64,000 nucleotides of DNA from Candidatus Binatia bacterium (GCA_963666515.2 OY762897.2:3840001-3904000), one strand, 5' to 3'; numbered from the stretch's first letter, positions 10,828 through 24,405 are shown. The notes: generated by a model from the letters alone, not told the origin. Program-made: numbers and translations.

Positions 10828-12507
10828 ATGAGCCTGGACCCCATCACCAGCGAAGTCGTGCTGAGCCGGTTGCGGGAGATCACCGCGTCCATGGCCCACG
10901 CGCTGTTCCACAGCGGCTACTCGCCGATCCTGCGCGAGTCCCAGGACGGCACCGCCGGGCTGACCGACGGCACGGGCCGCGTGATCATGGTGGGCGGCGG
11001 CCTGCAATACCATTCCCTGCTGTATTCGCAGTCGGTGGCCGGCGTCCTGGAACGCTACCCCGCGGAGGAGATGCGCGAGGGCGATTCGTTCGTTTCCAAC
11101 GATCCCTACAAGGCGGGAAACAGCCACGTCCCCGACATGGTGGTGGCGACGCCGGCGTTCCACGACGGCAAGGTGGTGGCTTTCGGCGTCAGCGTGGCCC
11201 ACAAGGCGGACGTTGGCGGCCTGGTGCCGGGCTCCAGCGGCGCGGCCTCGCGCGAGATTTTCCACGACGGCATCCTGCTGCCGCCGGTGCGCTTCACCAC
11301 CGCCGAGGGAGTTCTGCCCGAGGTGGAGGCGATCCTGCGCAACAACAGCCGCATCCCGGACGTGGTGCTGGGCGACCTGCGCGGACAGGTGGGCGCGACG
11401 AAGCTCGGCGCGCTCCGGTTCCAGGAGCTGCTGCAGGAGTACGGCGCGGACACCCTGCTGGGCACCATCGACGAGTTGATGACGCGCACTACGGCCCGCG
11501 TGAGGGCCGAGATCGCCTCGTGGCCGGACGGGGAGCACGAGGCGGAAGGGTTCCTCGACCACGACGGCGTGGACCGCTCCAAGCCGGTGCGCATCCACGT
11601 CCGGGCCGTCAAGGCCGGGGACCGGCTGACGCTCGACTTCTCCGGCAGCGACCCCCAGACCCCCGGACCGGTGAACACCACGCGGGTCACGGCCCGCGCG
11701 GTTTCGACCCAGGCGGTGCTGGCGGCCTCGGATCCGAGCATCCCGATGAACGCGGGCGCGTTCGAGGCCATCGAGTTCAACTTGCCGCCGGGGCTGGTGA
11801 TGAGCCCGCAGTTCCCGGCGACCGTCAACCACTACTTCCCGACCTCCCACCTGGTCTACAACTGCGTGCTCGCCGCGGTCGGAAAGTTCAACCCGAACCG
11901 GGCGGTGGCCCCGTCCGGCCTCGGCACCGGCGCCATCGCCGTGGGCTACAAGCAAAGCCGCTCCGCCGGCCGTCCCACCGTCCAGTACGAGATCATGATC
12001 ACGTCGCTGGGCGGCACCAGCGACCACGACGGCGCCGCCATCGTCATGCCGGTCAACCACTTCGCCCCCGGCACGCCCGTGGAGATCCTCGAGACCGAGT
12101 ACCCCGTTGGCGTCCGCCGCTACGACATCTGGCGGGACTCGGCCGGCGCCGGGCGCTGGCGCGGCGGCACGGGCTTCATCCGCGAGTACGAGTTCCTCAC
12201 CGACTGCACCCTCACGGTCCGCTCGGCCAACCATCAACAAGCCTCATGGGGCCTCAACGGCGGCGGCAGCCCGCCCAACTCCAGGACCACCATCCAGAAC
12301 CCCGGCGAGGACCCGGCCGAAGTCGACATGCTGGAAACCCGGCCCCTCAAGTCCGGCGCCCGGCTCGCCATCTACCGCAGCGGAGGCGGCGGCTACGGCG
12401 ACCCCAGGGAGCGCCCCGCCGAGTTGGTGCGGCAGGACGTCGAGGACGGCTACGTGTCGCGGGAAAAGGCCCGGGAAGCGTACGGGTTGGCGGATGAGCA
12501 AGGCTGA
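10828..12507 (+). CDS. Hydantoinase B / 5-oxoprolinase family subunit
   Basis: SPILRESQD, NDPYKAGNSHVPD, AHKADVGG, DSAGAGRWRGG, GGGGYGDP; GGAGG RBS before ATG 10828. Confidence 0.9.
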   Translation: MSLDPITSEVVLSRLREITASMAHALFHSGYSPILRESQDGTAGLTDGTGRVIMVGGGLQYHSLLYSQSVAGVLERYPAEEMREGDSFVSNDPYKAGNSHVPDMVVATPAFHDGKVVAFGVSVAHKADVGGLVPGSSGAASREIFHDGILLPPVRFTTAEGVLPEVEAILRNNSRIPDVVLGDLRGQVGATKLGALRFQELLQEYGADTLLGTIDELMTRTTARVRAEIASWPDGEHEAEGFLDHDGVDRSKPVRIHVRAVKAGDRLTLDFSGSDPQTPGPVNTTRVTARAVSTQAVLAASDPSIPMNAGAFEAIEFNLPPGLVMSPQFPATVNHYFPTSHLVYNCVLAAVGKFNPNRAVAPSGLGTGAIAVGYKQSRSAGRPTVQYEIMITSLGGTSDHDGAAIVMPVNHFAPGTPVEILETEYPVGVRRYDIWRDSAGAGRWRGGTGFIREYEFLTDCTLTVRSANHQQASWGLNGGGSPPNSRTTIQNPGEDPAEVDMLETRPLKSGARLAIYRSGGGGYGDPRERPAELVRQDVEDGYVSREKAREAYGLADEQG

Positions 12508-12588
12508 CGGCCGGTGAAGGGGCCGCACCGGACGTCTGCGCCGCGGAAACCGCGCCTGGGTCGTTTCTGACGGAGATTCATCGTACGC

Positions 12589-15384
12589 ATGGCATCCGGC
12601 AAACAACGTCGCAAGAAACAGAAGCGGAAACCTTCGGGCCACGTGCCGTTGGGCGATCTGCGGGAGCAGGTTCTGCAACTCCTGGCCCGGGGAGATGGTC
12701 GCGGCGCGCTTGATCGGCTGAAGCAGGCAAAATCCGAAAACGGTCAGCCGCCGGACGAACTGCCGGTTCTTCGGTTCTGCGCCTGCGTCGGGCGCGCTCG
12801 ACAGTTGGCGCGGAGCGGTCTGGACAAGGAGGCCGCGGCCATGCGCGCGCAGGCGGCGCAACACCGGGCGTCCATCCCGGCTGCGGCGCTGGCGGAAACG
12901 GACTTGGCGCTTTACCTCCGTTACCTCGACGGCGGCGACGCTCTGGCAGTTTACGGGGATTATCTCAAGGTCCAGCCGCCCGCCCGGGCGGTCGAACGGG
13001 CATTGGCGGATCAGCTCGTGGTCCGCAGGTGCTGGAAGGGCGTCGACGGTCTTGCGCCGGACCATCCGTTGCGCCGGGACGCCGGGCCGGTCCGGGAAAG
13101 CCTCGACGCCATGGACGCCGGTGACTGGACGCGGGCCGCCGAACGCTTGCAGGGCGTGTCGCGGCGTTCGCCGTTCGCGCCTTGGCGCGTGTTCTGCAAG
13201 GCCATGAAGTGCTTCGGAGACCGCGACGACGCGGGTCTTGCGCAGAATCTCGATCTCTTGCCGGCGGATTTCGTCCTTGCCGGGACGGTTGCCGAGTGGC
13301 GCCGCGCATGCGGCCGGGACAGCGCAGGCGGACCGGTTCCGGTGCGGCGGGTTCTGGGCACGGAGGAAACCGCGGTCGAGACTCTGGCGGGAGAACTGTC
13401 CAAGGCGTTGCGTACCAACGGCCACGCGCGCGCCGTCGAGCGGTTGGTGGTCGAGTTGGCCGATGCCCTGTACCCGGATGAACCGCTTCTGGCTCGCATG
13501 GATCTGCTGCTGATCGCCGGCTTGGCCGTGCCTGACGGCGGGTTCTCCAGGGAGAGCCTGATCGGGATGGTGCGGCGGCTCGTTCCCGAGAACCGCTGGG
13601 TCGGGTTGGGAGCCCGGATCGAGCTGCTGCTTGAGCAGGTTTCGCCCGATTCCTGGGACCCGAGCGTGACGGCCGCCTTGCTGAAGCGTCTGGAGACGGA
13701 GTTCCCCCGTCCTGCGGACCGCCCGCTGGCGCGCGCCCGCATGCTCGAAGCGCTCGCTCGAAACGGCCATCGGGCCGTTCGCCCCGAACGGCTCGCGCCG
13801 CAGACCTTGCAGGCGCTGTTGGAACTGCTGAACGGCCGCTTCGACCCGTCGGAGAATGTGTTCGCCGAGTTGATGGCGGCGAGCCTCGAAGCCGATCCGT
13901 ACAACCGTGAGGGCTATCGTTTCCTGATCGAGTTGGTGCAGGGGCGTGCTGGCGCCAAGCCGCGCATACGCCGCACGTTGGAGGCCATGGCGGCGCACTT
14001 CCCGGAGGATCCGGAGCCGTGGCTGGAAATGGCGGGGCTGGACTACTCCATGAATGCGTACCGGCGCGCCGAAACGACTCTGGCCGAGGCGCAACGGCGC
14101 GCGCCCCATGACGAGCGCACCCTGGACCTGCTGGCCGTGGGTTTCCTCAAGTCCGCGGATCAGAGCCGCAAGAGCGGCCGGTTCGAGCTTGCCGCCAAAG
14201 ACCTGCGGCGCGCCGAAGAGATGCGCCGGCCGGGGCTGGAGAGCATTGTCGAAGTGAAGCGCATCCTCCTGAAGGTGGTGTCCGCGGATGCGCTGTCCCA
14301 CGGCGGAGTATCCGAGGCGGAGACCGCCATGATCGTGGAGCCCCACTTGGCGGGCCTTTCGCCGGCCGGACAGATGAGGACCCTCGCCGTCCTGCTGCAC
14401 GACCTGGAAGAGAATCGCAGCGTCAAGAACGTGCACACCGGGATGCTGGGCAGCGTGAGGGCTCTCGTGGCCGCAAGGATGGCGGATATCGACGGACTCA
14501 CCCAGGATGAGAGGATCGATCTGCTCGTTCCGTTGCCGGCCGATCTTCAGGTGCTCTACGAACGCCGGCACGTCGCTCCGGTCCTGACGGATTGGTGGCC
14601 CGACATCCTGGAGCGGCAGGAAGGCGACGGGCTCCTCGCGGTTCTCGATCTTCTGATGGAGTGCGGCGGAAGCGCCGCGGTCCGCGTGGAGATCGGGCGC
14701 CGCCTGCGCGGGGCGAAGGCGCGCGACCGCGATCCCGTGCTGCTCCTGTACCTCGCGGTGATCCGCTACCGGGCCGGCGATGACTATGATTCCCGACGAT
14801 TTACGGAAGCCCTGGAAGCGGCCGGCGCCGCCGGTCGGAAAAAGCTTCGAACGGTGTCGGCCGGGCTCGCGCGGTTCACCGAGGGCCGCCTTTGCGAAGC
14901 GCTTCACAAGTTCGACTTCTCGTTGCTCGACGCGCCGCCCTGGCTCGACGAAGGTCCCTCGATGGCGGAGATGCTGGACGCGATTTTCGGTCTCGAGGAC
15001 GGGTTCGACGAGCCGCCGCCGGCGCTGAGCAGGGAGTTCGACACCGAGGAGGAGGACGGGCCGCCCCTCGACGAACTCATGGACGCCCTGAAAAACGGTC
15101 TGCGGAACGCTGCTTCCGTCGCCGCGGGCCAGATGTCGTTGTTCGGGGACGCGGCCGAGGCGACTCTGCTTACGCTGGAAACCATCCTCGACCGGTACGG
15201 TCTGCGCGGCCATCCCGCGGATATGCTCCGGCGCGTCGCCAGCATCGTGAGGACGGACGCCGCCATCCGGCGCAATCTGGACGCGCTGGCGCAGCAGTGC
15301 GGGGGGGCGGACCTGGGCGATCGGATCACGCCGGAGGCGCGGGTTTTCCTGTTCCCGCATCGGCGCAAGCGGCGCGGCCGCTGA
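12589..15384 (+). CDS. Large helical (TPR-like) protein of unknown function, first gene of Hsp70 operon
   Basis: 931 aa, Ala/Leu/Arg-rich helical; TPR-like units (SLEADPYNREGY, HFPEDPEPWLEMAGL, AQRRAPHDERTL); basic N- and C-termini; acidic linker followed by QMSLF. Confidence 0.75.
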   Translation: MASGKQRRKKQKRKPSGHVPLGDLREQVLQLLARGDGRGALDRLKQAKSENGQPPDELPVLRFCACVGRARQLARSGLDKEAAAMRAQAAQHRASIPAAALAETDLALYLRYLDGGDALAVYGDYLKVQPPARAVERALADQLVVRRCWKGVDGLAPDHPLRRDAGPVRESLDAMDAGDWTRAAERLQGVSRRSPFAPWRVFCKAMKCFGDRDDAGLAQNLDLLPADFVLAGTVAEWRRACGRDSAGGPVPVRRVLGTEETAVETLAGELSKALRTNGHARAVERLVVELADALYPDEPLLARMDLLLIAGLAVPDGGFSRESLIGMVRRLVPENRWVGLGARIELLLEQVSPDSWDPSVTAALLKRLETEFPRPADRPLARARMLEALARNGHRAVRPERLAPQTLQALLELLNGRFDPSENVFAELMAASLEADPYNREGYRFLIELVQGRAGAKPRIRRTLEAMAAHFPEDPEPWLEMAGLDYSMNAYRRAETTLAEAQRRAPHDERTLDLLAVGFLKSADQSRKSGRFELAAKDLRRAEEMRRPGLESIVEVKRILLKVVSADALSHGGVSEAETAMIVEPHLAGLSPAGQMRTLAVLLHDLEENRSVKNVHTGMLGSVRALVAARMADIDGLTQDERIDLLVPLPADLQVLYERRHVAPVLTDWWPDILERQEGDGLLAVLDLLMECGGSAAVRVEIGRRLRGAKARDRDPVLLLYLAVIRYRAGDDYDSRRFTEALEAAGAAGRKKLRTVSAGLARFTEGRLCEALHKFDFSLLDAPPWLDEGPSMAEMLDAIFGLEDGFDEPPPALSREFDTEEEDGPPLDELMDALKNGLRNAASVAAGQMSLFGDAAEATLLTLETILDRYGLRGHPADMLRRVASIVRTDAAIRRNLDALAQQCGGADLGDRITPEARVFLFPHRRKRRGR

Positions 15385-15395
15385 GGAACGGAGCC

Positions 15396-15701
15396 ATGCT
15401 GAGCCACTACCTGACCCTCGGACTGCCGCCGTCGGCTTCCAGCCAGGAGATTCGACGGCGCTACCTCGAACTCGTCCGCGCCCATCCGCCCAGCCGGGAG
15501 CCCGAGTACGGCGAGCGGATCATCGCCGCCTACGAGGCGTTGAAGGACGATCGGCGGCGAGTGGACACCGACTTGTTCGGGATGGCCCGCTGCGGCGGTT
15601 TCGAGCTGGCCCTGGACGCGCTGGTGCGGGCGCGCCCATCGGGACGCGCGACCCCCGGCCTCAAGACGCTTCTCGCCGCGGAAGGCATCGGTGATGACTG
15701 A
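15396..15701 (+). CDS. Small J-domain protein with HPP in place of HPD
   Basis: MLSHYLTLGLPPSASSQEIRRRYLELVRAHPPSREPE...IAAYEALKD matches J-domain helices I-III; 3' part of ORF 14892..15701; GGAG RBS. Confidence 0.85.
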   Translation: MLSHYLTLGLPPSASSQEIRRRYLELVRAHPPSREPEYGERIIAAYEALKDDRRRVDTDLFGMARCGGFELALDALVRARPSGRATPGLKTLLAAEGIGDD

Positions 15702-16380
15702 GCAGGACCGCGGCTGGAAGGAACGCGCGCTGGCGGACTTCCGGGAGTGGCTCGATGAGATGGACGGTGGCGCGGCGCCGGCGGATGCGGACCCGGAAAG
15801 CGTAACGCCGGAGCCCCCCCAGCCCGACCTGCGGTCGCTCTTCGCCGAGTTCGCGGCGCTCCGGCAGGAGGTCCGGCTTCAGAACCGGGAGCAATCCAGG
15901 GCGGTGCGGGAACTCGTCAAGGCGGCGGACGGTTACGAGGACGCGACGCGTCTGGTTCAACGCCGGGAAGACGATCTCGCGGCGTTCGAGAACCGGATCG
16001 CCCGGGAGGCCGAGAATCGCTGCCTGCGCTCCGTTCTGGAGGTGCGCGACGCGCTGGTGCGGGGCCGGGACGCGGCGGTCGCGCTGAGCCAAGGGCGGGG
16101 ACTGTTCCGGCGTCCGTCGCGCGGCGTCGCCGGCGTGGCCGAAGGGTACGAGATCGCGCTTCGGCGCTTCGACCGGATGTTGTCCGGGTTCGGCGTGGCG
16201 CCGGTGAAGACCACCGGGCATCCCTTCGATTCCCGGACCATGCACGCGATGGAAATTCGCCGGGCCGGGGAGAGCGGGAGCGGCGTGGTCGCGGAAGAAT
16301 TGCGTAGCGGCTTCACGCGCGACGGCGAGGTGCTGCGCGTCGCCGACGTGGCCGTGAACCGTTTCGACACAGGAGAGTGA
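15694..16380 (+). CDS. grpE: GrpE-like nucleotide exchange factor
   Basis: Coiled-coil N-half; C-terminal GHPFDSRTMHAM...VVAEELRSGFTRDGEVLRVADVAV; overlaps J gene stop. Confidence 0.8.
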   Translation: MTEQDRGWKERALADFREWLDEMDGGAAPADADPESVTPEPPQPDLRSLFAEFAALRQEVRLQNREQSRAVRELVKAADGYEDATRLVQRREDDLAAFENRIAREAENRCLRSVLEVRDALVRGRDAAVALSQGRGLFRRPSRGVAGVAEGYEIALRRFDRMLSGFGVAPVKTTGHPFDSRTMHAMEIRRAGESGSGVVAEELRSGFTRDGEVLRVADVAVNRFDTGE

Positions 16381-16383
16381 AAC

Positions 16384-18171
16384 ATGGATTCCGAACCCAT
16401 CGTCGGCATCGACCTCGGCACGACCAACTCCGAGGTGGTGGTCCTTTCCGGCGGGAAGCCGGAGGTCGTGCGCGAGGATGACGATGCCATCGTGCCCTCG
16501 TGCGTCGGGCTGGACGAGGCGGGCAACGTCATCGTCGGGCGCCAAGCGCGGAACCAGGCCGCGGTCGCCCCCGAGCGGACGGTGCTTTCCATCAAGCGGC
16601 TGATGGGTTCCGGCGAGCGGGTGGTGATGGGGTCGGAGACGTACACTCCGCAGGAATTGTCGGCCTTCATTCTCAAGGCGCTCAAGGAACGGGCCGCCCG
16701 CGCGCTGGCCCGGGAGGTGCGCAAGGCGGTGATCACGGTGCCGGCCTACTTCACCGACGCCCAGCGTCAGGCCACCCGGGAAGCCGGCCGCATCGCCGGG
16801 CTGGAGGTGGCGCGGATCATCAATGAGCCGACCGCGGCCGCGCTGAGCTACGAGAGCCGCAGCAGCGGGAGCCGCCGAATCCTCGTCTACGACCTGGGCG
16901 GCGGCACCTTCGACGTCTCGGTGGTGGCCATCGAGGACGGCGTGGTCGAGGTTCTCGCTTCCACCGGAGACAATCACCTCGGCGGCGACGACTTCGACGC
17001 CTTGATCGTGAAGCGTCTCAACACGCACGTCGAGAGCGAGCTCGGCATCGAAGGCGCCGGCGACAACCTCCTCCTGCAAGCGCGGCTCCGGCGGGCGTCG
17101 GAGCAGGCCAAGATCGAGCTTTCGACCCAACCCTTCGTCCGGGTCGAGGAGGATCATATCGCCTCGGTGGACGGCGAGCCCAGGCATCTGTCCTTCGAGG
17201 TGAGCCGCGCGGACTTCGAGCAGGACCTCGAGGAGATGCTGGCCCGCACCATGCAGTCGGTGACGACGGCGCTCAACGACGCCGGCGTGGTGCCGAGCCA
17301 GATCGACCGCGTCCTGCTGGTGGGCGGTTCGACCCGCATTCCCCGCATCGCCCAGCTTCTCGCGGAGCGGTTGGGGCAGGAGCCCCACGGCGAAGTGGAC
17401 CCGGACCTGTGCGTCGCTTTGGGGGCCGGCGTGCAGGCGGGCATCGAGATGGGGCACGACATGCAGTCCGTGCTGGTGGACATCACCCCTTATACCTTCG
17501 GCACCAGCGCCGTCGGCGAGCTCTACGGCCTGCCGTACGCCCATCAGTACTTCCCTCTCATCCGGCGCAACAGCAAGCTTCCCGCCACCCACACCGAGGC
17601 GTTTTCGACCTTGACCGAACACCAGGACACGGTGGAGGTCAAGGTCTACCAGGGGGAAGACCCGGATGCATTGAAGAACGTGGAGATCGGCTCGTTTTCC
17701 ATTACCGGCCTCAACCGGCAGCGCGGGGCATACGAGCAGGGCCTGCTTTTTTCCTTTCACCTGGACCTCGACGGCCTGCTCAAGGTCCACGCGGTGGAGC
17801 GGGCCACCGGCCGGGAAATCCGCGGCGTCGTCGAAAACGCCCTGGAGCGTTCCACCGAGGAAAGCCTCGCCGCCTCGATGCAGCGCATCGAAGCGCTGTG
17901 GGGCGAAGAAGAGATGCCCGCCGGCGGCGCTCGGGAGGAAGCGGCGGGGGCCGCCAGCGCTCCGGATCCCGGCAGCGACTTCCAGGCCGGCGATGAGTTC
18001 CAGGAGACGCTGGATCGCGCCCGGGCCGCGCTCGACACCGCTCCCGCTCCGGACCAGCAGGAGATCATCGACCTGATCGAAGACCTGCGCTACGCGTTAC
18101 GGGAAGGGCGCGCCGAAGACGCCGCGACGGTGAAGCAGGATCTCGACGAGATACTCTTCTATCTGGAGTAG
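16384..18171 (+). CDS. Hsp70 family protein (specialised DnaK paralog)
   Basis: GIDLGTTNS, TVPAYF, RIINEPTAAA, DLGGGTFDVS, LGGDDFD, LVGGSTRIP, VYQGE; divergent linker SVLVDIT and lid. Confidence 0.92.
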   Translation: MDSEPIVGIDLGTTNSEVVVLSGGKPEVVREDDDAIVPSCVGLDEAGNVIVGRQARNQAAVAPERTVLSIKRLMGSGERVVMGSETYTPQELSAFILKALKERAARALAREVRKAVITVPAYFTDAQRQATREAGRIAGLEVARIINEPTAAALSYESRSSGSRRILVYDLGGGTFDVSVVAIEDGVVEVLASTGDNHLGGDDFDALIVKRLNTHVESELGIEGAGDNLLLQARLRRASEQAKIELSTQPFVRVEEDHIASVDGEPRHLSFEVSRADFEQDLEEMLARTMQSVTTALNDAGVVPSQIDRVLLVGGSTRIPRIAQLLAERLGQEPHGEVDPDLCVALGAGVQAGIEMGHDMQSVLVDITPYTFGTSAVGELYGLPYAHQYFPLIRRNSKLPATHTEAFSTLTEHQDTVEVKVYQGEDPDALKNVEIGSFSITGLNRQRGAYEQGLLFSFHLDLDGLLKVHAVERATGREIRGVVENALERSTEESLAASMQRIEALWGEEEMPAGGAREEAAGAASAPDPGSDFQAGDEFQETLDRARAALDTAPAPDQQEIIDLIEDLRYALREGRAEDAATVKQDLDEILFYLE

Positions 18172-18179
18172 TCCACGTC

Positions 18180-18473
18180 ATGCGCTGCCCGACCTGCGGA
18201 GCCAGACAGGTGGAAGGCCCCTGCTGCCACCGTTGCGAAACCGACCTGCGCCAAGTGTTCGCCATCGAACGAGCCGCGGCCAACGAGAGGCAGCGCGCGC
18301 TCACCGCCCTCGCCCACGGCCGCCGATCGGAAGCCCGCGCCCTCGCCAACCGCGCCTGCACCCTGCACCGGTCCCGTGACGCCGTCGCCGCCCGCGCCGC
18401 GGTTGCCCTGGCAGACCGCGACTTCCCCTTGGCGTTGCGGCTGTGGCGGGAAACGCGCCGCGCACCAGATTGA
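18180..18473 (+). CDS. Zn-ribbon plus TPR-like small protein
   Basis: MRCPTCG...CHRCETDL (two CxxC) followed by Ala/Arg-rich helices; 8 bp after Hsp70 stop. Confidence 0.7.
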   Translation: MRCPTCGARQVEGPCCHRCETDLRQVFAIERAAANERQRALTALAHGRRSEARALANRACTLHRSRDAVAARAAVALADRDFPLALRLWRETRRAPD

Positions 18474-18544
18474 GACGCAAGAGTTACGGAGGATGGGAAA
18501 GCGCCGGACTGCTGCGAGTCGCCCTGGGTGACTTCGCCGGCTGG

Positions 18545-19525
18545 CTACGTGTCCCGCACGCTCGGGTGAAAGAGTTCCTCCACCGGGTACGGCGAGTCGA
18601 TCAGCGTCTGGTCGGTCAGGTATTTCATGAAGCGTTCGAGGCAGGCGCGGTTGGCCGCGAGGCCCGAAGGCCAGATGTCGGCGCCGAACAGGGTCCGTTC
18701 CTCCTCGAAGTCATTGCGCGCGAAGGCCAGTTCGGCATAGCCCGGGTCGTCATAGAATTCCGCCGCCTGGGCCTTGGAATCCTCCCACATGTCCATCAGC
18801 GCGCGCGGCAGGCCGGGGTGACGGTCGGCGATTTCCTGCTTGTAGACCAGCACGTGCATGATCGGATAGTCGCCGTTCTTCCTGAAATAGCGCGCGCATT
18901 CCTCCTTGGTGTCGGGGAACAGCCGGTGGAGCGATCCCTCGCGCAAGCCCTCCAGCAGCTTGGGCGGCGGATGCGGGTGGATCATCATGGCAAGGTCGCC
19001 CTCGATCAGCGCGTCCGGGGCGCTGGGCTCGTCGATCAGAGTCAGATTGGCGGCCTCGCGGCCCGGCCAGTCGATGAGTTCCGAGCTCATGGTCTGCCAG
19101 TCCAGCTCCTGCCAGGGCACGCCGTACTCGAACGCGAGGTCGCCTTTGGCCAGCACCGACATGGTGGTCTGGAAACTGCGGCAGCAGACCTTCCGGCCGA
19201 TCAGGTCCGCCGGCTTTTCGATGCCGGCCGCGGTGCTGACGAACATGTGGTTCTGGCTGAACAGGCGGCGCGGGAACACCGGCGTCGCCGTGTAGTCAAG
19301 CCCGCGGCTCTTGGCCGTGAGGTAGGACGACAGCGACATCTCGCAAATGTCGAACTCGCCGCCGCGCATGAAGCGCCTGTGGCGGTCGATGCCGTCGCGC
19401 CTCGGCGGCGCCATGCCGACCTCGAGCACTTTCAGGTCGATGCCTTCCGGGGGCGAGACCATTCCCATGAAGAACGGCACGTGCCGGTCATACCGCTCCA
19501 GCGCGATGGTCAATTCCGTCGCCAT
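18545..19525 (-). CDS. 4,5-dihydroxyphthalate decarboxylase-like / ABC substrate-binding fold protein
   Basis: YDRH, EFDICEMSLSSYL, PVFPRRLF, YPIMHVL, WPSGLAANR motifs. Confidence 0.75.
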   Translation of the reverse strand: MATELTIALERYDRHVPFFMGMVSPPEGIDLKVLEVGMAPPRRDGIDRHRRFMRGGEFDICEMSLSSYLTAKSRGLDYTATPVFPRRLFSQNHMFVSTAAGIEKPADLIGRKVCCRSFQTTMSVLAKGDLAFEYGVPWQELDWQTMSSELIDWPGREAANLTLIDEPSAPDALIEGDLAMMIHPHPPPKLLEGLREGSLHRLFPDTKEECARYFRKNGDYPIMHVLVYKQEIADRHPGLPRALMDMWEDSKAQAAEFYDDPGYAELAFARNDFEEERTLFGADIWPSGLAANRACLERFMKYLTDQTLIDSPYPVEELFHPSVRDT

Positions 19526-19541
19526 GTCGGGTTCCCTCGCC

Positions 19542-20705
19542 TTACGCGTCCAGCTTGAACAGCCGCTCCGCGTTGCCGTGGCGGATCAGCTCCTTGGTCT
19601 CCTCGGAGAGGTTCTGGTTGACGGCCAGGAGCTGGACGTCGCGGAACTTCATGCTGCCGCCGGGGTCGTCGTGGGGGTAGTCGGTGGCGAACAGGAAGCG
19701 CTCCGCTCCCAGGAAGTCGATGGCGTCGGGCAGCGCGGCCTCCTCGGTCTCGATGGTGAAGTAGAAGTTGTTGCGGAAGTAGTGGCTGGCCGGCTGCCTG
19801 TTCTTCTCCAGGAACACCTCAGGTCCATAGAACGCCCGGTGGCGGCGCAGCTTGGCCTGGACCCCGCGCATGACGTCAGCGTCGGCGTCCCCGTCGTAGT
19901 CCACCGGAGGGCCGGCGAAGGCCGCGTCCAGCCGTTCCACCAAGGGCCTGATGAAACCCGTTCCGGCCTCGGTGAAGATGAACTGGAGGCCGGGGAAGTC
20001 GTCCAGCAGCCCGCTGGTCACGAGCGACACCAGGCTCACCTGCCCCTCCTGCGGCGCGAACAGGTAGAGGCCGTCCTTCTGGAAGTTGGGCAGGTTGCTG
20101 ATGCGGTGGCCGTGCTGGATGTTGTGGAGGAAGATGGGCATCTCCATCTCTTCGGCCCGGGCGAAGAAGGGCCACAGCTCCTTGTGGCTGCCGAGGCTCT
20201 CGCCGTAGGGGTGGTCCTGCACCGGGTAGACCTTGTCCAGCACCACCGCGCAAAACCCCTCCTTCTGCGCCCACTCCATCTCGCGAATGGCCGCGGGCAC
20301 GTCCTGGAGCTGCACGATGGCCACGCCGACGAGACAGTTGTGGCGCTCCATCATGCGCAGGTTGGACAGGTTGTAGGAGCGGGCGATGGCCGACGCCAGC
20401 GCCGGCTCGATCATGTAGCTCCACCAGCCGGAGAACTGCGGCAGCACGAACTGCCGGTCCACCCCCAGCACCGGCATCTCGTCGAGCCGCACCTGCAGGT
20501 CCACCAGCCCCTTCATCTTGGCCCCGGAGCCCGGCGCGCCCAACGGCGTCACGCCGGGGACTTCGGGCGGCCCGCCGGGAAACTCCATGTCGACGAGCAG
20601 TCCGTCTTCGCCATACACGGGGACCGGCGCCTTGCCGCGGAACTCCTCGGGCACGTAGTCAAAGGCGTCCTCGGGCATGATGTGGGTGTCGCAGTCGATG
20701 ATCAC
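19542..20705 (-). CDS. Amidohydrolase_2 family protein (ACMSD/LigW-like)
   Basis: GTG start 20705 with AGGAGG RBS; IDCDTH, IFLH, FTEAG, FATDYPHDD; 16 bp upstream of the decarboxylase-like gene. Confidence 0.85.
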   Translation of the reverse strand: MIIDCDTHIMPEDAFDYVPEEFRGKAPVPVYGEDGLLVDMEFPGGPPEVPGVTPLGAPGSGAKMKGLVDLQVRLDEMPVLGVDRQFVLPQFSGWWSYMIEPALASAIARSYNLSNLRMMERHNCLVGVAIVQLQDVPAAIREMEWAQKEGFCAVVLDKVYPVQDHPYGESLGSHKELWPFFARAEEMEMPIFLHNIQHGHRISNLPNFQKDGLYLFAPQEGQVSLVSLVTSGLLDDFPGLQFIFTEAGTGFIRPLVERLDAAFAGPPVDYDGDADADVMRGVQAKLRRHRAFYGPEVFLEKNRQPASHYFRNNFYFTIETEEAALPDAIDFLGAERFLFATDYPHDDPGGSMKFRDVQLLAVNQNLSEETKELIRHGNAERLFKLDA

Positions 20706-20871: not shown

Positions 20872-21141
20872 ATGCCAATGCCACGTCACAATATGCATGT
20901 TCCTCTTCCGACGGACACCCATGCGCGACTCAAAGCGGAGTCCAAGCGCTCTGGGCGGCCCACGACGGCGCTGGCCCGCGAAGCTATCGAGACATGGCTG
21001 GCCGAGCGGGAAAAAGAGTCCCTGCACGATGCAATCGCCGAGTATGCGCGGGTGGCTGCCGGGACACCGGCTGATCTGGATCCGGAGTTGGAAAGCGCCG
21101 CGGTGGATCATCTGCTGGATACCGAGCGGGGCGACGCGTGA
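20872..21141 (+). CDS. Ribbon-helix-helix antitoxin
   Basis: HVPLPTDTHARLKAESKRSGRPTTALAREAI RHH pattern, acidic tail, 4-bp overlap with toxin. Confidence 0.75.
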   Translation: MPMPRHNMHVPLPTDTHARLKAESKRSGRPTTALAREAIETWLAEREKESLHDAIAEYARVAAGTPADLDPELESAAVDHLLDTERGDA

Positions 21142-21485
21142 AACGCGGGGATGTTTACTGGGCAACCCTGACGCCTCGGTCGGGCTCGGAACAGAAGGGT
21201 CGGCGCCCCGTCATCGTCGTTTCCCATGACGGTTTCAATCAGACATCCGCATGGCGTTCCATCATCGTCGTCCCGCTGTCAACGTCTATCCCCCAACGGC
21301 AACGTGGACCGACGTCCGTTGCCTTGCCTGAAGGCGTCGCAGGCCTGAACCGGGACGGCGTTGCGCTATGCCACCAAGTCACCACGCTCGATCGGGCCAA
21401 GCTGTCGCGCCATATCGGCACCCTGCCTACGGTGGCCATGAGCGCGGTGGATGCCGGCCTCAAGGCCGCGCTCGCGTTGTGGTAA
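21138..21485 (+). CDS. mazF: PemK/MazF family toxin
   Basis: MKRGDVYWA...GSEQKGRRPVIVVS.D.FN...VVPLST...QVTTLDR. Confidence 0.9.
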   Translation: MKRGDVYWATLTPRSGSEQKGRRPVIVVSHDGFNQTSAWRSIIVVPLSTSIPQRQRGPTSVALPEGVAGLNRDGVALCHQVTTLDRAKLSRHIGTLPTVAMSAVDAGLKAALALW

Positions 21486-21642
21486 ACCGCCGGTACGGAA
21501 GCGGCAGCCCACCGTCTCCTGAAACGTACACGGTGCCCATCCGGGCTTGAAACCTGCCCCTGCACCCGGACCGTCCTGCGGCGCAGGCTCCCAAGGACGG
21601 CGGGACTTCACGGACCACGGGCGAATCGGTAAGAAGAGCGTC

Positions 21643-24405
21643 ATGGAACGGTCACTGAAGAAGGCAGGACGCAGTCGCCCGCGGTTGGTGAACGAGCGGC
21701 CGCCGACGTTTCGCGGCTGGCTCTCCACCGATGAAGACGAGGTCCGGCGGAGGGAGTGGCGCGGGCGGACCGAGATCGACGAGATACGTGCGCTCGACCC
21801 GAAGCACCGCCCGTTCGGCGACTACCGTGTCGCTTCGTCGAGCGGCGGCCGCTACGTGGTCGAGATACGCTCGCTCCGCCAACGCATCAATTCCTGCGAG
21901 TGTCACGACTACCGCACCAACCGTCTGGGGACCTGCAAGCACATCGAAGGGGTGCTGCGCCGTGCGGACGGCGTCCGCGCCGGAGGCGCGGCGAGTGGAA
22001 GATCGAACGGCCGTATCGAGATATTCGTCGACGAGGCCAACGGGCGGGCGCTACGACGGACCGTTCCGACGGCGAACGGGCGCGGCGCGCCGGAAGTCGT
22101 CGCGGAAACGGAGCGGCTCTTCCGCAGCCTGCGCCGCGGCTCCCCGAAGGCGCTCGCCGGGCTTCGCCGGATGGCGTCGGACCACCCTGGCGCGTTGCGG
22201 GTCTCACGCCTGCTGGAGGGTTGGGTCGAGGCCAGGCAGGCGTCGGAGCGCAAACGCCGCGAACGGGCGCGTTTCGCCGCGGACCTCAGCGAAAGGCGCC
22301 GCTCCCTCGATTTTCTCAAACGTCCGCTGCTGCCGTACCAGGTGGAGGGCGTCCTCCATCTTGCGTTCGGGGAGCGCTCGTTGCTTGCGGACGACATGGG
22401 CCTCGGCAAGACGGTGCAGGCCATCGCGGCCTGCGCGCTCCTGCGCGAACTCCGCGGCGTCGAGCGGGTGCTGGTGGTGTCGCCGGCCTCCCTCAAGGCC
22501 GAATGGGAGGAACAGATCGCGACCTTCTCCGACCTTCCCGCCACGGTCGTGTTCGGGGGACCCGCGGCCCGCCGCGCGGCCTACGAGCGGGGCGCCTTCT
22601 TCACGCTCTGCAACTATGAGCAGGTGGTGGTGGACCGGAGGGAACTCATCGAGACGCTCCGGCCCGATGTCGTGATTCTGGACGAAGCCCAACGCATCAA
22701 GAACTGGCAGACCAAGACCGCCAACGAGGTCAAGAAGCTCGACAGCCGCTACGCCTTCGTCCTCACCGGCACCCCCCTCGAGAACCGCATCGACGAAGTC
22801 TACTCGATCGTCCAGTTTCTCAATCCCGATCTCCTCGGCCCGCTGTTCCGCTTCAACCGGGAGTTCTATGAGTTGGACGAAAAGGGCCGCCCCGTGGGCT
22901 ACCGCAACCTGGAGGCGCTGGCGGAGCGGGTGTCGTCGGTGATGCTCCGCCGGCGGAAGGAGGACGTCGAGAGCCAGCTTCCGGGGCGGACGACGAAGAC
23001 GTTCTTCGTTCCCATGACCGAGACCCAGCTCGACGTCTACGACGGTTACGAGCGCCTTGCGCAACGGCTCGCCGCCATCGCCGCGAAACGGCCGCTTACG
23101 CCCGAGGAGTTCAAGTCGCTCCAGGGGAATCTCGCCTGCATGCGCATGGCCTGCGACACCCCTTACATCCTCGACGGCAGGACGCGCGAGTGTCCCAAGA
23201 TGGAGGAGATCGAAGGGCTCTTGCCGGACCTCTTGGAAGACCCCGCGCGCAAGATCATCATCTTCTCCGAATGGGTGCGGATGCTGGAGCTGGTCCGCGA
23301 CTACGCGGTGGAGGCCGGCATCGAGTTCGCGTGGCACACGGGAAGCGTCCCCCAGCTTCGGCGCCGCGCCGAGATCCAACGGTTCCGCAAGGACCCCGAA
23401 TGCCGGCTGTTCCTCTCTTCCGAGTCCGGCGGGGTGGGACTGAACCTCCAGGTGGCCGACACGGTCATCAACATGGACCAGCCGTGGAACCCCGCACGGC
23501 TGGAGCAGCGCATCGCCCGCGCCTGGCGCAAGCACCAGACCCGCGCCGTCCACGTCATCCACCTGGTGAGCGAGCACACCATCGAACACCGCATGCTCGG
23601 GCTGCTGGACGCCAAGCGAGCGCTGGCCGAAGGCGTGCTCGACCGCAAGGGCGATCTCGCCGGCATCCGTATGCCCAACAGCCGGGCCGCGTTCATGGAG
23701 CGGCTGCAGGCCGTGCTCGACACCCGGCCGAAAGAGGAGGAGGCCGCGGCCGGGGCGCAACCTCCGGTCACCACCCTCGACCGCCTGCGCGATGAGCTGG
23801 TCGCCGGTCACGGTGCGGCGTTGCAGCGGATCCTTGCGCGCGAAGGCGCCGGCGCCGCGCTGGTCGTGCTCAACCTCCCAGCCCCTCGTCTGGCGGAGGA
23901 AGAACGCCGCCTCAGCGAATCCACGGGACTGAGCGTCAAGGTCATCGCCCCTGACGCCTACGAGTCGATGCGGCGTCTGGCGGAAGCCGGGTTGATCTCG
24001 ATGCCGGCGGAGGACCTCCGCGAGGTGTATCCTGCCGCCGGCGCGGAGGACGACGGGAGCGCCGGCCGCCTGCTTCGCGCCAAGGCGCTGGCCGAACGCG
24101 CGGAGCACAAGCTCAAGGCCTCGGCGTTGCTCGAAGGCGGCGGCTTCCCGGAGGAAGCGCGCGCCCCCGCGGTGGAGGCGGCCCGGCTCGCCGCCGGATG
24201 CCTGGCCGTGGCGGAGGGTGCGCCGGAGCCCGAGGACGCCGAAGCCGCGGCGGCGTTTCTGCTTGAGCACGAGGTGGCGGCCGGCGGTCTCCCGCTCGAC
24301 GCGGTAGGCATACTTTCCGGCGAGGCGCCCGAGGCGGAAGTGGCGGCCCCTGTGCGCAGCCTGCTGGACGCGGTGGCTGCGCGCCTCGATCCCGCCGCGG
24401 GCTGA
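21643..24405 (+). CDS. SWIM zinc finger-SNF2 family helicase with extra C-terminal region
   Basis: CECHDYRTNRLGTCKH (SWIM); LADDMGLGKT, DEAQRIKN, LTGTPLEN, GGVGLNLQ, QRIARAWR; start uncertain (ORF open from 21547). Confidence 0.88.
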   Translation: MERSLKKAGRSRPRLVNERPPTFRGWLSTDEDEVRRREWRGRTEIDEIRALDPKHRPFGDYRVASSSGGRYVVEIRSLRQRINSCECHDYRTNRLGTCKHIEGVLRRADGVRAGGAASGRSNGRIEIFVDEANGRALRRTVPTANGRGAPEVVAETERLFRSLRRGSPKALAGLRRMASDHPGALRVSRLLEGWVEARQASERKRRERARFAADLSERRRSLDFLKRPLLPYQVEGVLHLAFGERSLLADDMGLGKTVQAIAACALLRELRGVERVLVVSPASLKAEWEEQIATFSDLPATVVFGGPAARRAAYERGAFFTLCNYEQVVVDRRELIETLRPDVVILDEAQRIKNWQTKTANEVKKLDSRYAFVLTGTPLENRIDEVYSIVQFLNPDLLGPLFRFNREFYELDEKGRPVGYRNLEALAERVSSVMLRRRKEDVESQLPGRTTKTFFVPMTETQLDVYDGYERLAQRLAAIAAKRPLTPEEFKSLQGNLACMRMACDTPYILDGRTRECPKMEEIEGLLPDLLEDPARKIIIFSEWVRMLELVRDYAVEAGIEFAWHTGSVPQLRRRAEIQRFRKDPECRLFLSSESGGVGLNLQVADTVINMDQPWNPARLEQRIARAWRKHQTRAVHVIHLVSEHTIEHRMLGLLDAKRALAEGVLDRKGDLAGIRMPNSRAAFMERLQAVLDTRPKEEEAAAGAQPPVTTLDRLRDELVAGHGAALQRILAREGAGAALVVLNLPAPRLAEEERRLSESTGLSVKVIAPDAYESMRRLAEAGLISMPAEDLREVYPAAGAEDDGSAGRLLRAKALAERAEHKLKASALLEGGGFPEEARAPAVEAARLAAGCLAVAEGAPEPEDAEAAAAFLLEHEVAAGGLPLDAVGILSGEAPEAEVAAPVRSLLDAVAARLDPAAG

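Follow-up and report, generated by a model that had tools for sequence, protein, structure and literature searches.

Five genes at positions 12589-18473 of a 64,000-nucleotide stretch of DNA from a Candidatus Binatia bacterium (GCA_963666515.2 OY762897.2:3840001-3904000; the whole stretch is called the window for simplicity) form an operon that is real, sharply bounded and widely conserved, and that is apparently uncharacterised in the literature. In the reading we favour, to which we assign a probability of about 0.55, this operon-like module encodes a dedicated, non-housekeeping Hsp70 machine that works with or on a large solenoid protein, here called BIG, as its fixed partner. The five open reading frames (ORFs) lie on the same (+) strand with intergenic gaps of 11, -8, 3 and 8 bp, and the ORF listing thereby reproduces exactly the co-oriented layout described in an initial annotation made from the DNA alone; the GrpE gene starts 8 bp before the J-like gene ends. 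The cassette of about 5.9 kb comprises:

12589..15384, + strand: gene of the large protein BIG, 931 aa (ORF; Pfam TPR_19)
15396..15701, + strand: J-like gene, 101 aa, ATG at 15396 (ORF; Pfam DnaJ)
15694..16380, + strand: GrpE gene, 228 aa, alternative GTG start at 15691 (Pfam GrpE)
16384..18171, + strand: Hsp70 gene, 595 aa (ORF; Pfam HSP70)
18180..18473, + strand: Zn-ribbon/TPR gene, 97 aa, two tetratricopeptide (TPR) repeats, no Pfam family

The linkage of the five genes was followed in a scan covering one genome per species, which returned 71 BIG loci; the 64 loci with at least 3.3 kb of DNA after BIG were counted as informative. The order BIG-J-GrpE-Hsp70-Zn is present in 62 of these 64 loci and spans 5-6 phyla, the carriers being metagenome-assembled genomes (MAGs) labelled Candidatus Binatia, Gamma- and Alphaproteobacteria (Rhodobacterales, Rhodospirillales), Latescibacterota, Acidobacteriota/Vicinamibacterales, Spirochaetia and, in one case, 'Syntrophobacterales'. 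In the two exceptions, the C-terminus of BIG is altered (L041) or BIG is present as a fragment (L067), and seven genome loci cut by contig ends hold whichever partners fit. A distant alignment (members 19-36% identical) retrieved 69 metagenome loci in which BIG is 23-43% identical and the GC content ranges from 0.29 to 0.63. Where BIG is followed by at least 3.6 kb of metagenome DNA, 35 of 38 loci have all four partners in the same order (one exception, L147, is rearranged and two, L170 and L172, are without partners), and a J-like gene comes next after BIG in 19 of 20 shorter ones. Adjacent coding regions often abut or overlap in these distant relatives too. Since the same order recurs in both sets of loci, the five-gene arrangement is far beyond chance. 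Co-occurrence of the large and the Zn-ribbon genes with the Hsp70 gene, on which the initial annotation had staked its interpretation beforehand, is near-exceptionless at these counts. In the flanks examined, no gene outside the five was conserved across lineages, and the cassette has no further conserved neighbour. The near-obligate linkage over a deep family, with nothing else conserved, argues for one machine. Across phyla, Hsp70 is 57-87% and BIG 31-76% identical, and over 55 loci the identities of the five proteins to the window copies co-vary (Spearman rho 0.63-0.83, values that are descriptive only because the loci are kin). In the MAG labelled uncultured Syntrophobacterales (L008/L100), both DnaK and the cassette group tightly with Binatia-labelled MAGs and the window genome, so that the label may be off.

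The cassette Hsp70 scored 458.4 bits with Pfam HSP70 and stayed below the NCBIfam equivalog cut-offs for DnaK (NF001413, 491.2 vs 648; TIGR02350, 481.6 vs 822.55) and for HscA (TIGR01991, 378.7 vs 708.55). It is 38% identical to the DnaK of its own genome and 40.2%, 36.5% and 35.8% identical to DnaK, HscC and HscA of E. coli, respectively; the closest solved relative is Geobacillus DnaK (2v7y, E 2.4e-115). Alignment to the three E. coli proteins revealed a full nucleotide-binding domain (NBD), the linker 'VLVDITPYTFG' and the beta part of the substrate-binding domain (SBD-beta). The NBD motifs are retained, together with an Arg aligned with DnaK R167 and a stretch aligned with the GrpE-signature region, and 119 columns are invariant over 36 sequences from the close and the distant clade of the family. 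Residues corresponding to ~76-101 of DnaK (NBD lobe I) are deleted, an 8-aa insert (the 'LPYAHQYF' region) is found in SBD-beta loop L1,2 a few residues off the insert of E. coli HscC, and the lid is short, ending at the helix aligned with DnaK residues ~590-600. The extreme C-terminus is conserved and reads ...LDEILFYLE in the window and ..EILFY[ILM][GED] in distant members.

In a maximum-likelihood tree of 33 cassette rows and 14 others, the cassette clade received an SH-aLRT (approximate likelihood-ratio) support of 80 and the DnaK clade one of 100; in another, made with 16 cassette sequences, 12 DnaKs and E. coli DnaK, HscA and HscC, support was 95 for the cassette group and 95 for DnaK plus HscA. 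Both are quick IQ-TREE reconstructions with SH-aLRT support only and no bootstraps. E. coli HscC, the sole HscC included, sat on a long branch in a region of low resolution and did not join the cassette clade, to which it may or may not be sister. These comparisons place the cassette Hsp70 in a lineage separate from DnaK and HscA. Two more divergent Hsp70-like proteins of 609 and 615 aa (L097, L098) were noticed in a Vicinamibacterales MAG with several cassette copies (G005); they are 32% and 29% identical to the cassette Hsp70 and form very long branches.

The window genome (4.67 Mb, 2 contigs, 98% complete) contains a canonical grpE (166 bits)-dnaK (923.6 bits, PF00012)-dnaJ operon ~300 kb off, the dnaJ product of which has J, CXXCXGXG and DnaJ_C domains. 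A housekeeping DnaK (875-932 bits, PF00012) was found beside the cassette Hsp70 (~400-450 bits) in all 11 host genomes checked. The separate clade and the canonical operon elsewhere in the genome confirm the earlier view that the cassette is not the housekeeping locus. Its proteins share the Hsp70 and GrpE folds with the housekeeping GrpE-DnaK-DnaJ set, with NBD, linker and SBD-beta conserved, whereas the Hsp70 forms its own clade with scores below the cut-offs and a type I DnaJ is lacking. According to Pfam, no DnaJ with Zn-finger and C-terminal domains is encoded in the cassette, as the initial annotation had stated (hrcA was not searched for).

The 101-aa J-like protein matched Pfam DnaJ (PF00226) over residues 4-57 with 31.7 bits (cut-off 27.8). 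In an alignment with the J domains of E. coli DnaJ, HscB, DjlB and DjlC, the HPD site reads HPPS in the window protein. Neither HPD nor an acidic third residue occurs in any of 69 close relatives, the variants being HPPS, HRPG, YPPS, TPPS and others. HPD is likewise found in 0 of 57 distant relatives, 56 of which read [HYFNS]-x-P-E-(K/R)-(D/N)-P, with His in 19 only; their loop looks like HPDKNP plus one inserted residue, and the window clade is without even that Glu. A basic-plus-leucine motif is conserved in the C-terminal third of the protein ('PGLKTLLAAEG' in the window, 'RRR.GL.ELL' in distant members). The cassette GrpE scored 64.3 bits with Pfam GrpE (PF01025; cut-off 25.8) and remained below every NCBIfam GrpE equivalog cut-off (best 32.9 vs 152). 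Hsp70 D463, which aligns with DnaK D481, was observed to be one of just seven positions separating the close from the distant clade: Asp accompanies an acid-free J loop (HPPS/HRPG), and Asn accompanies a J loop with Pro-Glu. We take DnaK D481 to lie at the NBD/SBD-beta interface near R167. The pattern reflects a single phylogenetic split and is therefore a lead, not evidence.

According to a review, 99% of J domains carry HPD, and hydrolysis is not triggered without it (PMC13580251). Since the J-like proteins are without the motif that this review calls needed for hydrolysis, a complete private cycle cannot be assumed. The 'private chaperone cycle' proposed in the initial annotation thus stands as far as a self-contained, non-housekeeping set is concerned, and falls short of an established complete cycle.

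BIG matched a single Pfam family, TPR_19, with 28.4 bits at residues 463-516 (cut-off 25), and NCBIfam has no model either for BIG or for the 97-aa protein. The AlphaFold2 (AF2) model of BIG is an all-helical solenoid (local confidence pLDDT 81.2, global confidence pTM 0.51), with a low-confidence acidic tract at ~783-826 and a C-terminal helical domain. Foldseek matched it to TPR scaffolds only (Ski3, Naa15, TTC7B, IFT-A, Ctr9) at template-modelling (TM) scores of 0.12-0.21; among 72 PDB structural matches at E<=1e-3, those listed are TPR-type scaffolds with low TM. Based on the TPR profile match and the helical-hairpin superhelix of the model, BIG is predicted to be a TPR-like alpha-solenoid, and the low TM scores indicate that its fold is a generic one. 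The BIG profile gave nothing specific against PDB sequences, no extra, J or enzyme domain was found in eight longer BIG relatives, and the ESM Atlas returned unnamed or generic TPR clusters only, with recognition under the usual mark.

The most conserved block of BIG is 467-510, 'FP.DP.P.LELA..Y...NAYR.AE......A..RAPHD'. Of the sequences counted, 66 of the 67 close ones and 46 of the 47 distant ones have a polybasic N-terminus, defined as at least six K/R within the first 20 residues, and an acidic tract lies within the last 220 residues in all close and distant sequences counted (median D/E in the richest 30-residue window, 11 in close and 16 in distant ones). The C-terminal motif '(L)SREA.IFLF(P/G)' takes the form 'REA..FLFP' in the window and is followed there by a polybasic tail. 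Near the C-terminal end, 64 of the 67 close sequences have a hydrophobic triplet, as do 29 of the 47 distant ones, and the polybasic tail after the motif was counted in 54 of the 67 close ones. The polybasic N-terminus and the internal acidic tract suggest, at the level of sequence, that BIG might be an autoinhibited or polyanion-binding scaffold. The family is large: a profile search of 1.84 billion representatives gave 1064 at E<=1e-3, of which 211 reached E<=1e-30, and a word-based search gave 229 BIG protein clusters, the 120 listed ones being 45-95% identical over full length and bearing no name beyond 'hypothetical' or 'TPR repeat protein'. One locus (L180) contains a 797-aa form of BIG inside a full cassette.

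The 97-aa protein had been called a Zn-ribbon/TPR protein in the initial annotation, and this description held. C3, C6, C16 and C19 are invariant in 36 sequences, four helices come after a ribbon in the AF2 model (pLDDT 94.5), and the profile matched designed consensus TPR proteins (1.4e-12) and Hop/STIP1 TPR domains (7.9e-5 to 6e-3) in the PDB. Zinc-ribbon profile matches in the PDB (ribosomal L32, TniQ) had E>0.3 only, and no Pfam family was matched, including the DNL zinc-finger (Hep1/Zim17). Foldseek superposed the model on many TPR domains (Hip, RPAP3, CHIP, Hop) with a TM of ~0.6 and a root-mean-square deviation of ~1-1.5 Å over 61-67 residues, at E values no better than 0.19 and with generic TPRs ranking equally. 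The protein thus resembles the Hsp70 co-chaperones Hop/STI1, Hip and CHIP in its helical part, which matches the Hop profile and superposes at this TM, and the C-terminal end of the cassette Hsp70 is conserved as well. It differs in having two TPR motifs instead of the three of a carboxylate clamp and in matching designed TPRs better, and the hydrophobic ILFY[ILM] of the cassette Hsp70 differs from the EEVD tail of eukaryotic Hsp70. No fused 'Rosetta-stone' forms were found for the Zn-TPR profile among proteins of 301-2000 aa, which is weak evidence. The predicted complex of Hsp70 with the Zn-TPR protein scored 0.01 against a mark of 0.32 in a prediction made without controls, and gives no evidence either way.

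Among known systems, the anatomy of the cassette Hsp70 is closest to HscC, one of three prokaryotic Hsp70 types. The ~76-101 deletion, the L1,2 insertion (4-8 residues in HscC) and the shortened lid are the hallmarks of HscC, and all three are shared by the cassette Hsp70; the deletion occurs in numerous non-proteobacterial DnaKs as well (PMC8215388). As in the cassette, the specialised, non-essential HscC of E. coli has its own J partners, DjlB and DjlC, encoded alongside. HscC operates without GrpE, lacks the GrpE signature and binds peptides mainly via positive charge (PMC8215388), whereas the cassette has a GrpE gene as part of the operon in the 62 of 64 and 35 of 38 loci and the signature stretch in its Hsp70. 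The motif 'HPETDP' of DjlB/DjlC resembles the [HYF]xPEK[DN]P of the wider J-like family, and the loop between helices II and III is short in both; the cassette J-like protein differs in its 101 aa without a long extension and, in the window clade, in having no acid in the motif. TPR-like Sel1-repeat genes, ybeQ and ybeT, stand beside the HscC system too, together with a DUF1266 gene that has no counterpart in the cassette. The hscC locus of E. coli K-12 (L112, 675-684 kb) was seen to consist of two repeats of Sel1-repeat (TPR-like), DUF1266 and djl genes.

In the HscA-HscB system, a dedicated Hsp70 and a small J protein act on one partner, IscU, via a short motif, and the cassette may by analogy follow the same principle. 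It differs in that no isc genes are found near it and in that its Hsp70 has the GrpE-signature stretch, which is absent in HscA (PMC8215388 and our alignment). The grpE(MXAN_6672)-MxDnaK2 operon of M. xanthus, compared here by description and not by sequence, likewise encodes a DnaK paralogue with its own GrpE and is not heat-induced and has specialised roles; as described in the available passages, it is set apart from the cassette by being bicistronic, with no J gene adjoining either MxDnaK gene and no mention of a TPR or Zn-ribbon gene (PMC11019930). Conflict systems centred on a GAP1-N2 GTPase combine HSP70, GrpE and DnaJ/TPR fusions and resemble the cassette in that HSP70, GrpE and a DnaJ/TPR-bearing protein are encoded outside the housekeeping locus. 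These systems are defined by the GTPase and a protein with fibronectin type III (FNIII) repeats and occur mostly in actinobacteria and firmicutes (Kaur et al. 2020; PMC7159879), whereas by Pfam neither a GTPase nor an FNIII domain is encoded by the five cassette genes or by those immediately flanking them. Fusions of DnaK-like domains to EACC1-protease modules have been described (PMC12642450), and DnaK derivatives have been called 'dark matter', bacterial DnaK paralogues being frequent and mostly unexplained (PMC13580251, PMC11019930). No description of the five-gene operon was found in the full-text literature searched, in agreement with the initial annotation, which knew of no functional characterisation of this operon type; subscription-only work such as the J-domain survey of Barriot et al. 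may list it. The operon is best described as a variant of dedicated Hsp70 systems, with an Hsp70 nearest to HscC in anatomy, but with a GrpE, a J-like protein without HPD and two TPR proteins.

The cassette is an accessory, patchily distributed and sometimes multi-copy element. BIG turned up in 5 of 61 related genomes: 4 of the genus's 27 other species carry it, and none of the 33 genomes from the order's other genera does. Even sampling across the phylum yielded it in 4 of 401 genomes, and in just two of these at full length. Both the conserved five-gene order and the patchy distribution that a neighbourhood survey had been proposed to reveal were thus observed. The cassette is present in 5 of 28 congeneric genomes, always directly after hydantoinase B. 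In the window, the upstream neighbours are the hydantoinase A and B genes, and downstream on the - strand lie the gene of a 326-aa protein without a Pfam family and then that of an Amidohydro_2 protein. In the cassette-free congeners G037, G018 and G017, the hydantoinase B and 326-aa genes are 105, 103 and 182 bp apart. Congener homology runs through the hydantoinase B stop, is lost within the spacer 12508-12588 and resumes at 18545. The two junctions are:

12508..12588: left junction, spacer from the hydantoinase B stop to the BIG start, containing the left indel edge (alignment to three cassette-free congeners)
18474..18544: right junction, spacer from the Zn-TPR stop to the end of the 326-aa gene on the - strand (alignment with cassette-free congeners)

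Since homology is lost inside both spacers, the cassette is a clean indel of ~5.9 kb. Other congeners hold other content between the hydantoinase B and amidohydrolase genes, which makes this a variable site. Across the genus, the same spot (window ~12500-19550) was observed to be empty (130-290 bp) or to contain the 326-aa gene alone, the cassette alone, both, or 0.9-3.4 kb of other DNA.

At least five intact cassette copies occur, along with broken ones, in one Vicinamibacterales MAG; the copies are 94-99.8% identical over ~6.0-8.4 kb and have differing flanks. The duplicated unit of ~6.2 kb extends from ~300 bp ahead of BIG to a point shortly past the Zn-ribbon gene; no recombinase was found inside it. 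Two copies that are 97% identical over 6.1 kb are found in an alphaproteobacterial MAG. Between copies within a genome, dN/dS is 0.15-0.54 for all genes, with the exception of one Zn pair (1.17, from four changes), and on these ratios the copies are under purifying selection. No match to BIG came from viral contigs (none of 83 candidate stretches) or from the records of phages and plasmids. Four of the copies in the Vicinamibacterales MAG (L022, L028, L042, L045) include an HU/IHF-type gene (104 aa, Bac_DNA_binding 70.5 bits) on the opposite strand, ~240-500 bp past the Zn-ribbon gene; it was not found in the window or at other loci.

With regard to regulation, Rfam gave no match at E<=0.1 in 12000-19000, no sigma-70-like site was detected, and a single terminator-like site was detected, within the Hsp70 gene, fewer than the 3.7 obtained on average after shuffling. 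At 11 metagenome loci (L122, L126, L127, L130, L131, L133, L135, L140, L143, L145 and L146, all with the contig prefix Ga0272440), the Zn-ribbon gene is followed on the same strand by a gene for an NtrC-type response regulator of ~475 aa with receiver (REC), sigma-54 AAA+ and helix-turn-helix domains, with a spacing that ranges from a 58-bp overlap to a 38-bp gap, and at L156 and L160 a PAS-sigma-54 activator gene lies upstream. Control by sigma-54 was considered and rejected: the best fits to TGGCACG-N4-TTGCW in the 300 bp upstream of BIG score no better than those in 300-bp pieces from inside BIG.

Further downstream in the window (20872-21485, + strand), an 89-aa ORF without a Pfam family overlaps by 4 bp the gene of a 115-aa PemK/MazF-type toxin (103.8 bits), and the two, located 2.4 kb past the cassette, probably make up a type II toxin-antitoxin pair. 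A 952-aa SNF2-family helicase (21547-24405, + strand; SNF2-rel_dom 152 bits, Helicase_C 74.6 bits) is encoded directly after the toxin gene.

If the module is a dedicated machine, its Hsp70 would be a complete, allosterically competent ATPase with a substrate-binding domain that is reset by the cassette GrpE. The J-like protein would dock on Hsp70 via its basic helix II and serve as a targeting or regulatory partner marking the place of action, not as a classical HPD-dependent ATPase trigger, and the Zn-ribbon/TPR protein could be a small accessory factor in the style of Hop or Hip. Hsp70 would probably engage short hydrophobic-plus-basic linear motifs of the module itself, the likely sites being the C-terminal tail of BIG ('..REA.IFLF(P/G)+K/R') and the tail of the J-like protein ('RRR.GL..LL / PGLKTLL'). 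ATP would then be spent by Hsp70 to open, assemble or release the BIG solenoid, and BIG would be the object of the cycle rather than an adaptor.

Several observations weigh against this proposal. With no HPD in the J-like protein, canonical ATPase stimulation is doubtful, and the cycle may need the host DnaJ or differ from the canonical one. The C-terminal polybasic tail of BIG is present in just 11 of 47 distant members. The conserved C-terminus of Hsp70 aligns with the last lid helix of DnaK and may therefore be structural, not a docking motif. L170 and L172 hold a 777-aa BIG relative without adjacent chaperone genes; these proteins end just before the acidic tract and the C-terminal domain, with unrelated genes downstream, and many BIG family representatives of ~780-800 aa exist. 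The solenoid can thus exist without an adjacent module. Paralogous Hsp70 copies show a dN/dS of 0.3-0.4, a high value for an Hsp70, and no RNA run is listed among the sequencing runs holding the stretch. Finally, that the five proteins bind one another, and which motif meets which site, we infer from sequence alone.

A different possibility is that the cassette encodes a general-purpose second stress Hsp70 system, in which BIG and the Zn-TPR protein are co-chaperones or adaptors that, like Hop, Tom70 or DNAJC7, bring many clients to the Hsp70. The fold class of each of the five proteins is one of chaperones or co-chaperones, neither the window BIG nor its eight longer relatives have an enzymatic domain, and further DnaK paralogues of mostly unexplained role are frequent in bacteria, as noted above. 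The Zn-TPR profile matches Hop and the model superposes on Hsp70/Hsp90-binding TPR domains, but these matches are weak and generic TPR proteins match equally. We consider this possibility unlikely, as neither the rarity of the cassette (5 of 28 congeners, 4 of 401 phylum genomes) nor the need for a conserved 900-aa partner of a single family is expected of a general chaperone, and no heat-shock-type element was found (no Rfam match, no promoter-like site).

A role in anti-phage defence or conflict, already suggested in the initial annotation, would have BIG sense an invader protein while the Hsp70 module sets the threshold or triggers the response. The patchy accessory distribution with indel polymorphism among congeners, the several copies in one MAG, the MazF-type toxin pair and SNF2 helicase 2.4-3 kb downstream in the window and the predicted GAP1-N2 systems that pair HSP70 and GrpE with DnaJ/TPR fusions are all in keeping with such a role. 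The defining GTPase of the GAP1-N2 systems, however, is absent from the five proteins, as is any nuclease, protease, TIR, pore or NTPase effector (Pfam). PADLOC-DB 2.0 gave only marginal matches (PDC-M61B, 18.3 bits, for Hsp70; DruH, 15.8 bits, for the J-like protein; none for the other three), the neighbours are metabolic and differ between lineages with none conserved, and nothing was found in viral contigs, phages or plasmids. The high conservation of Hsp70 and BIG across phyla is also unlike that of fast-evolving sensors. The suggestion therefore found little to sustain it, and we regard it as less likely still than a general stress system.

Least likely of all, and improbable in our view, is that BIG is a eukaryote-like host-interaction factor of animal-associated bacteria that has NLS-like (nuclear localisation signal-like) polybasic ends and is kept export-competent by the chaperones: its best Foldseek matches are eukaryotic scaffolds, its polybasic termini are conserved, TPR-type eukaryote-like proteins are discussed in the available parts of the sponge-symbiont literature, and a 'sponge metagenome' run holds 0.35 of the sampled words beside four runs of study P1 that hold nearly all (runs labelled marine, coral reef or sponge metagenome whose shares are small, 0.07-0.16, were not used for habitat), but no signal peptide, secretion gene or translocon was found in the flanks examined, the wider family occurs in many metagenome records with a GC content of 0.29-0.63, and TM scores of 0.12-0.21 denote a generic solenoid.

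The dedicated machine working with or on BIG may be given a broader form, which we put forward tentatively and hold to be doubtful. DnaK, HscA and HscC would then be joined by the cassette as a fourth class of bacterial Hsp70 machine, one that is widespread, passed on by horizontal transfer and similar to eukaryotic Hsp70-TPR assemblies, and in which ATP might switch BIG between a closed state, with the acidic tract held by the polybasic ends, and an open one for binding polyanions or partners.

For the family as a whole, the cassette provides a sharply defined, portable and testable example of an Hsp70 system that has kept a private exchange factor while its J partner is without HPD, and the candidate partner or client comes from a single large protein family (the 1064 representatives at E<=1e-3). 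The two clades offer a natural contrast, with HPPS/HRPG and Asp at the DnaK-D481 position in the close one and xPE and Asn in the distant one. If the Hsp70 cycle runs without an HPD trigger, this would bear on how J domains activate Hsp70 proteins. If BIG is indeed the client, the cassette Hsp70 would be the second bacterial Hsp70 devoted to one protein, after HscA with IscU.

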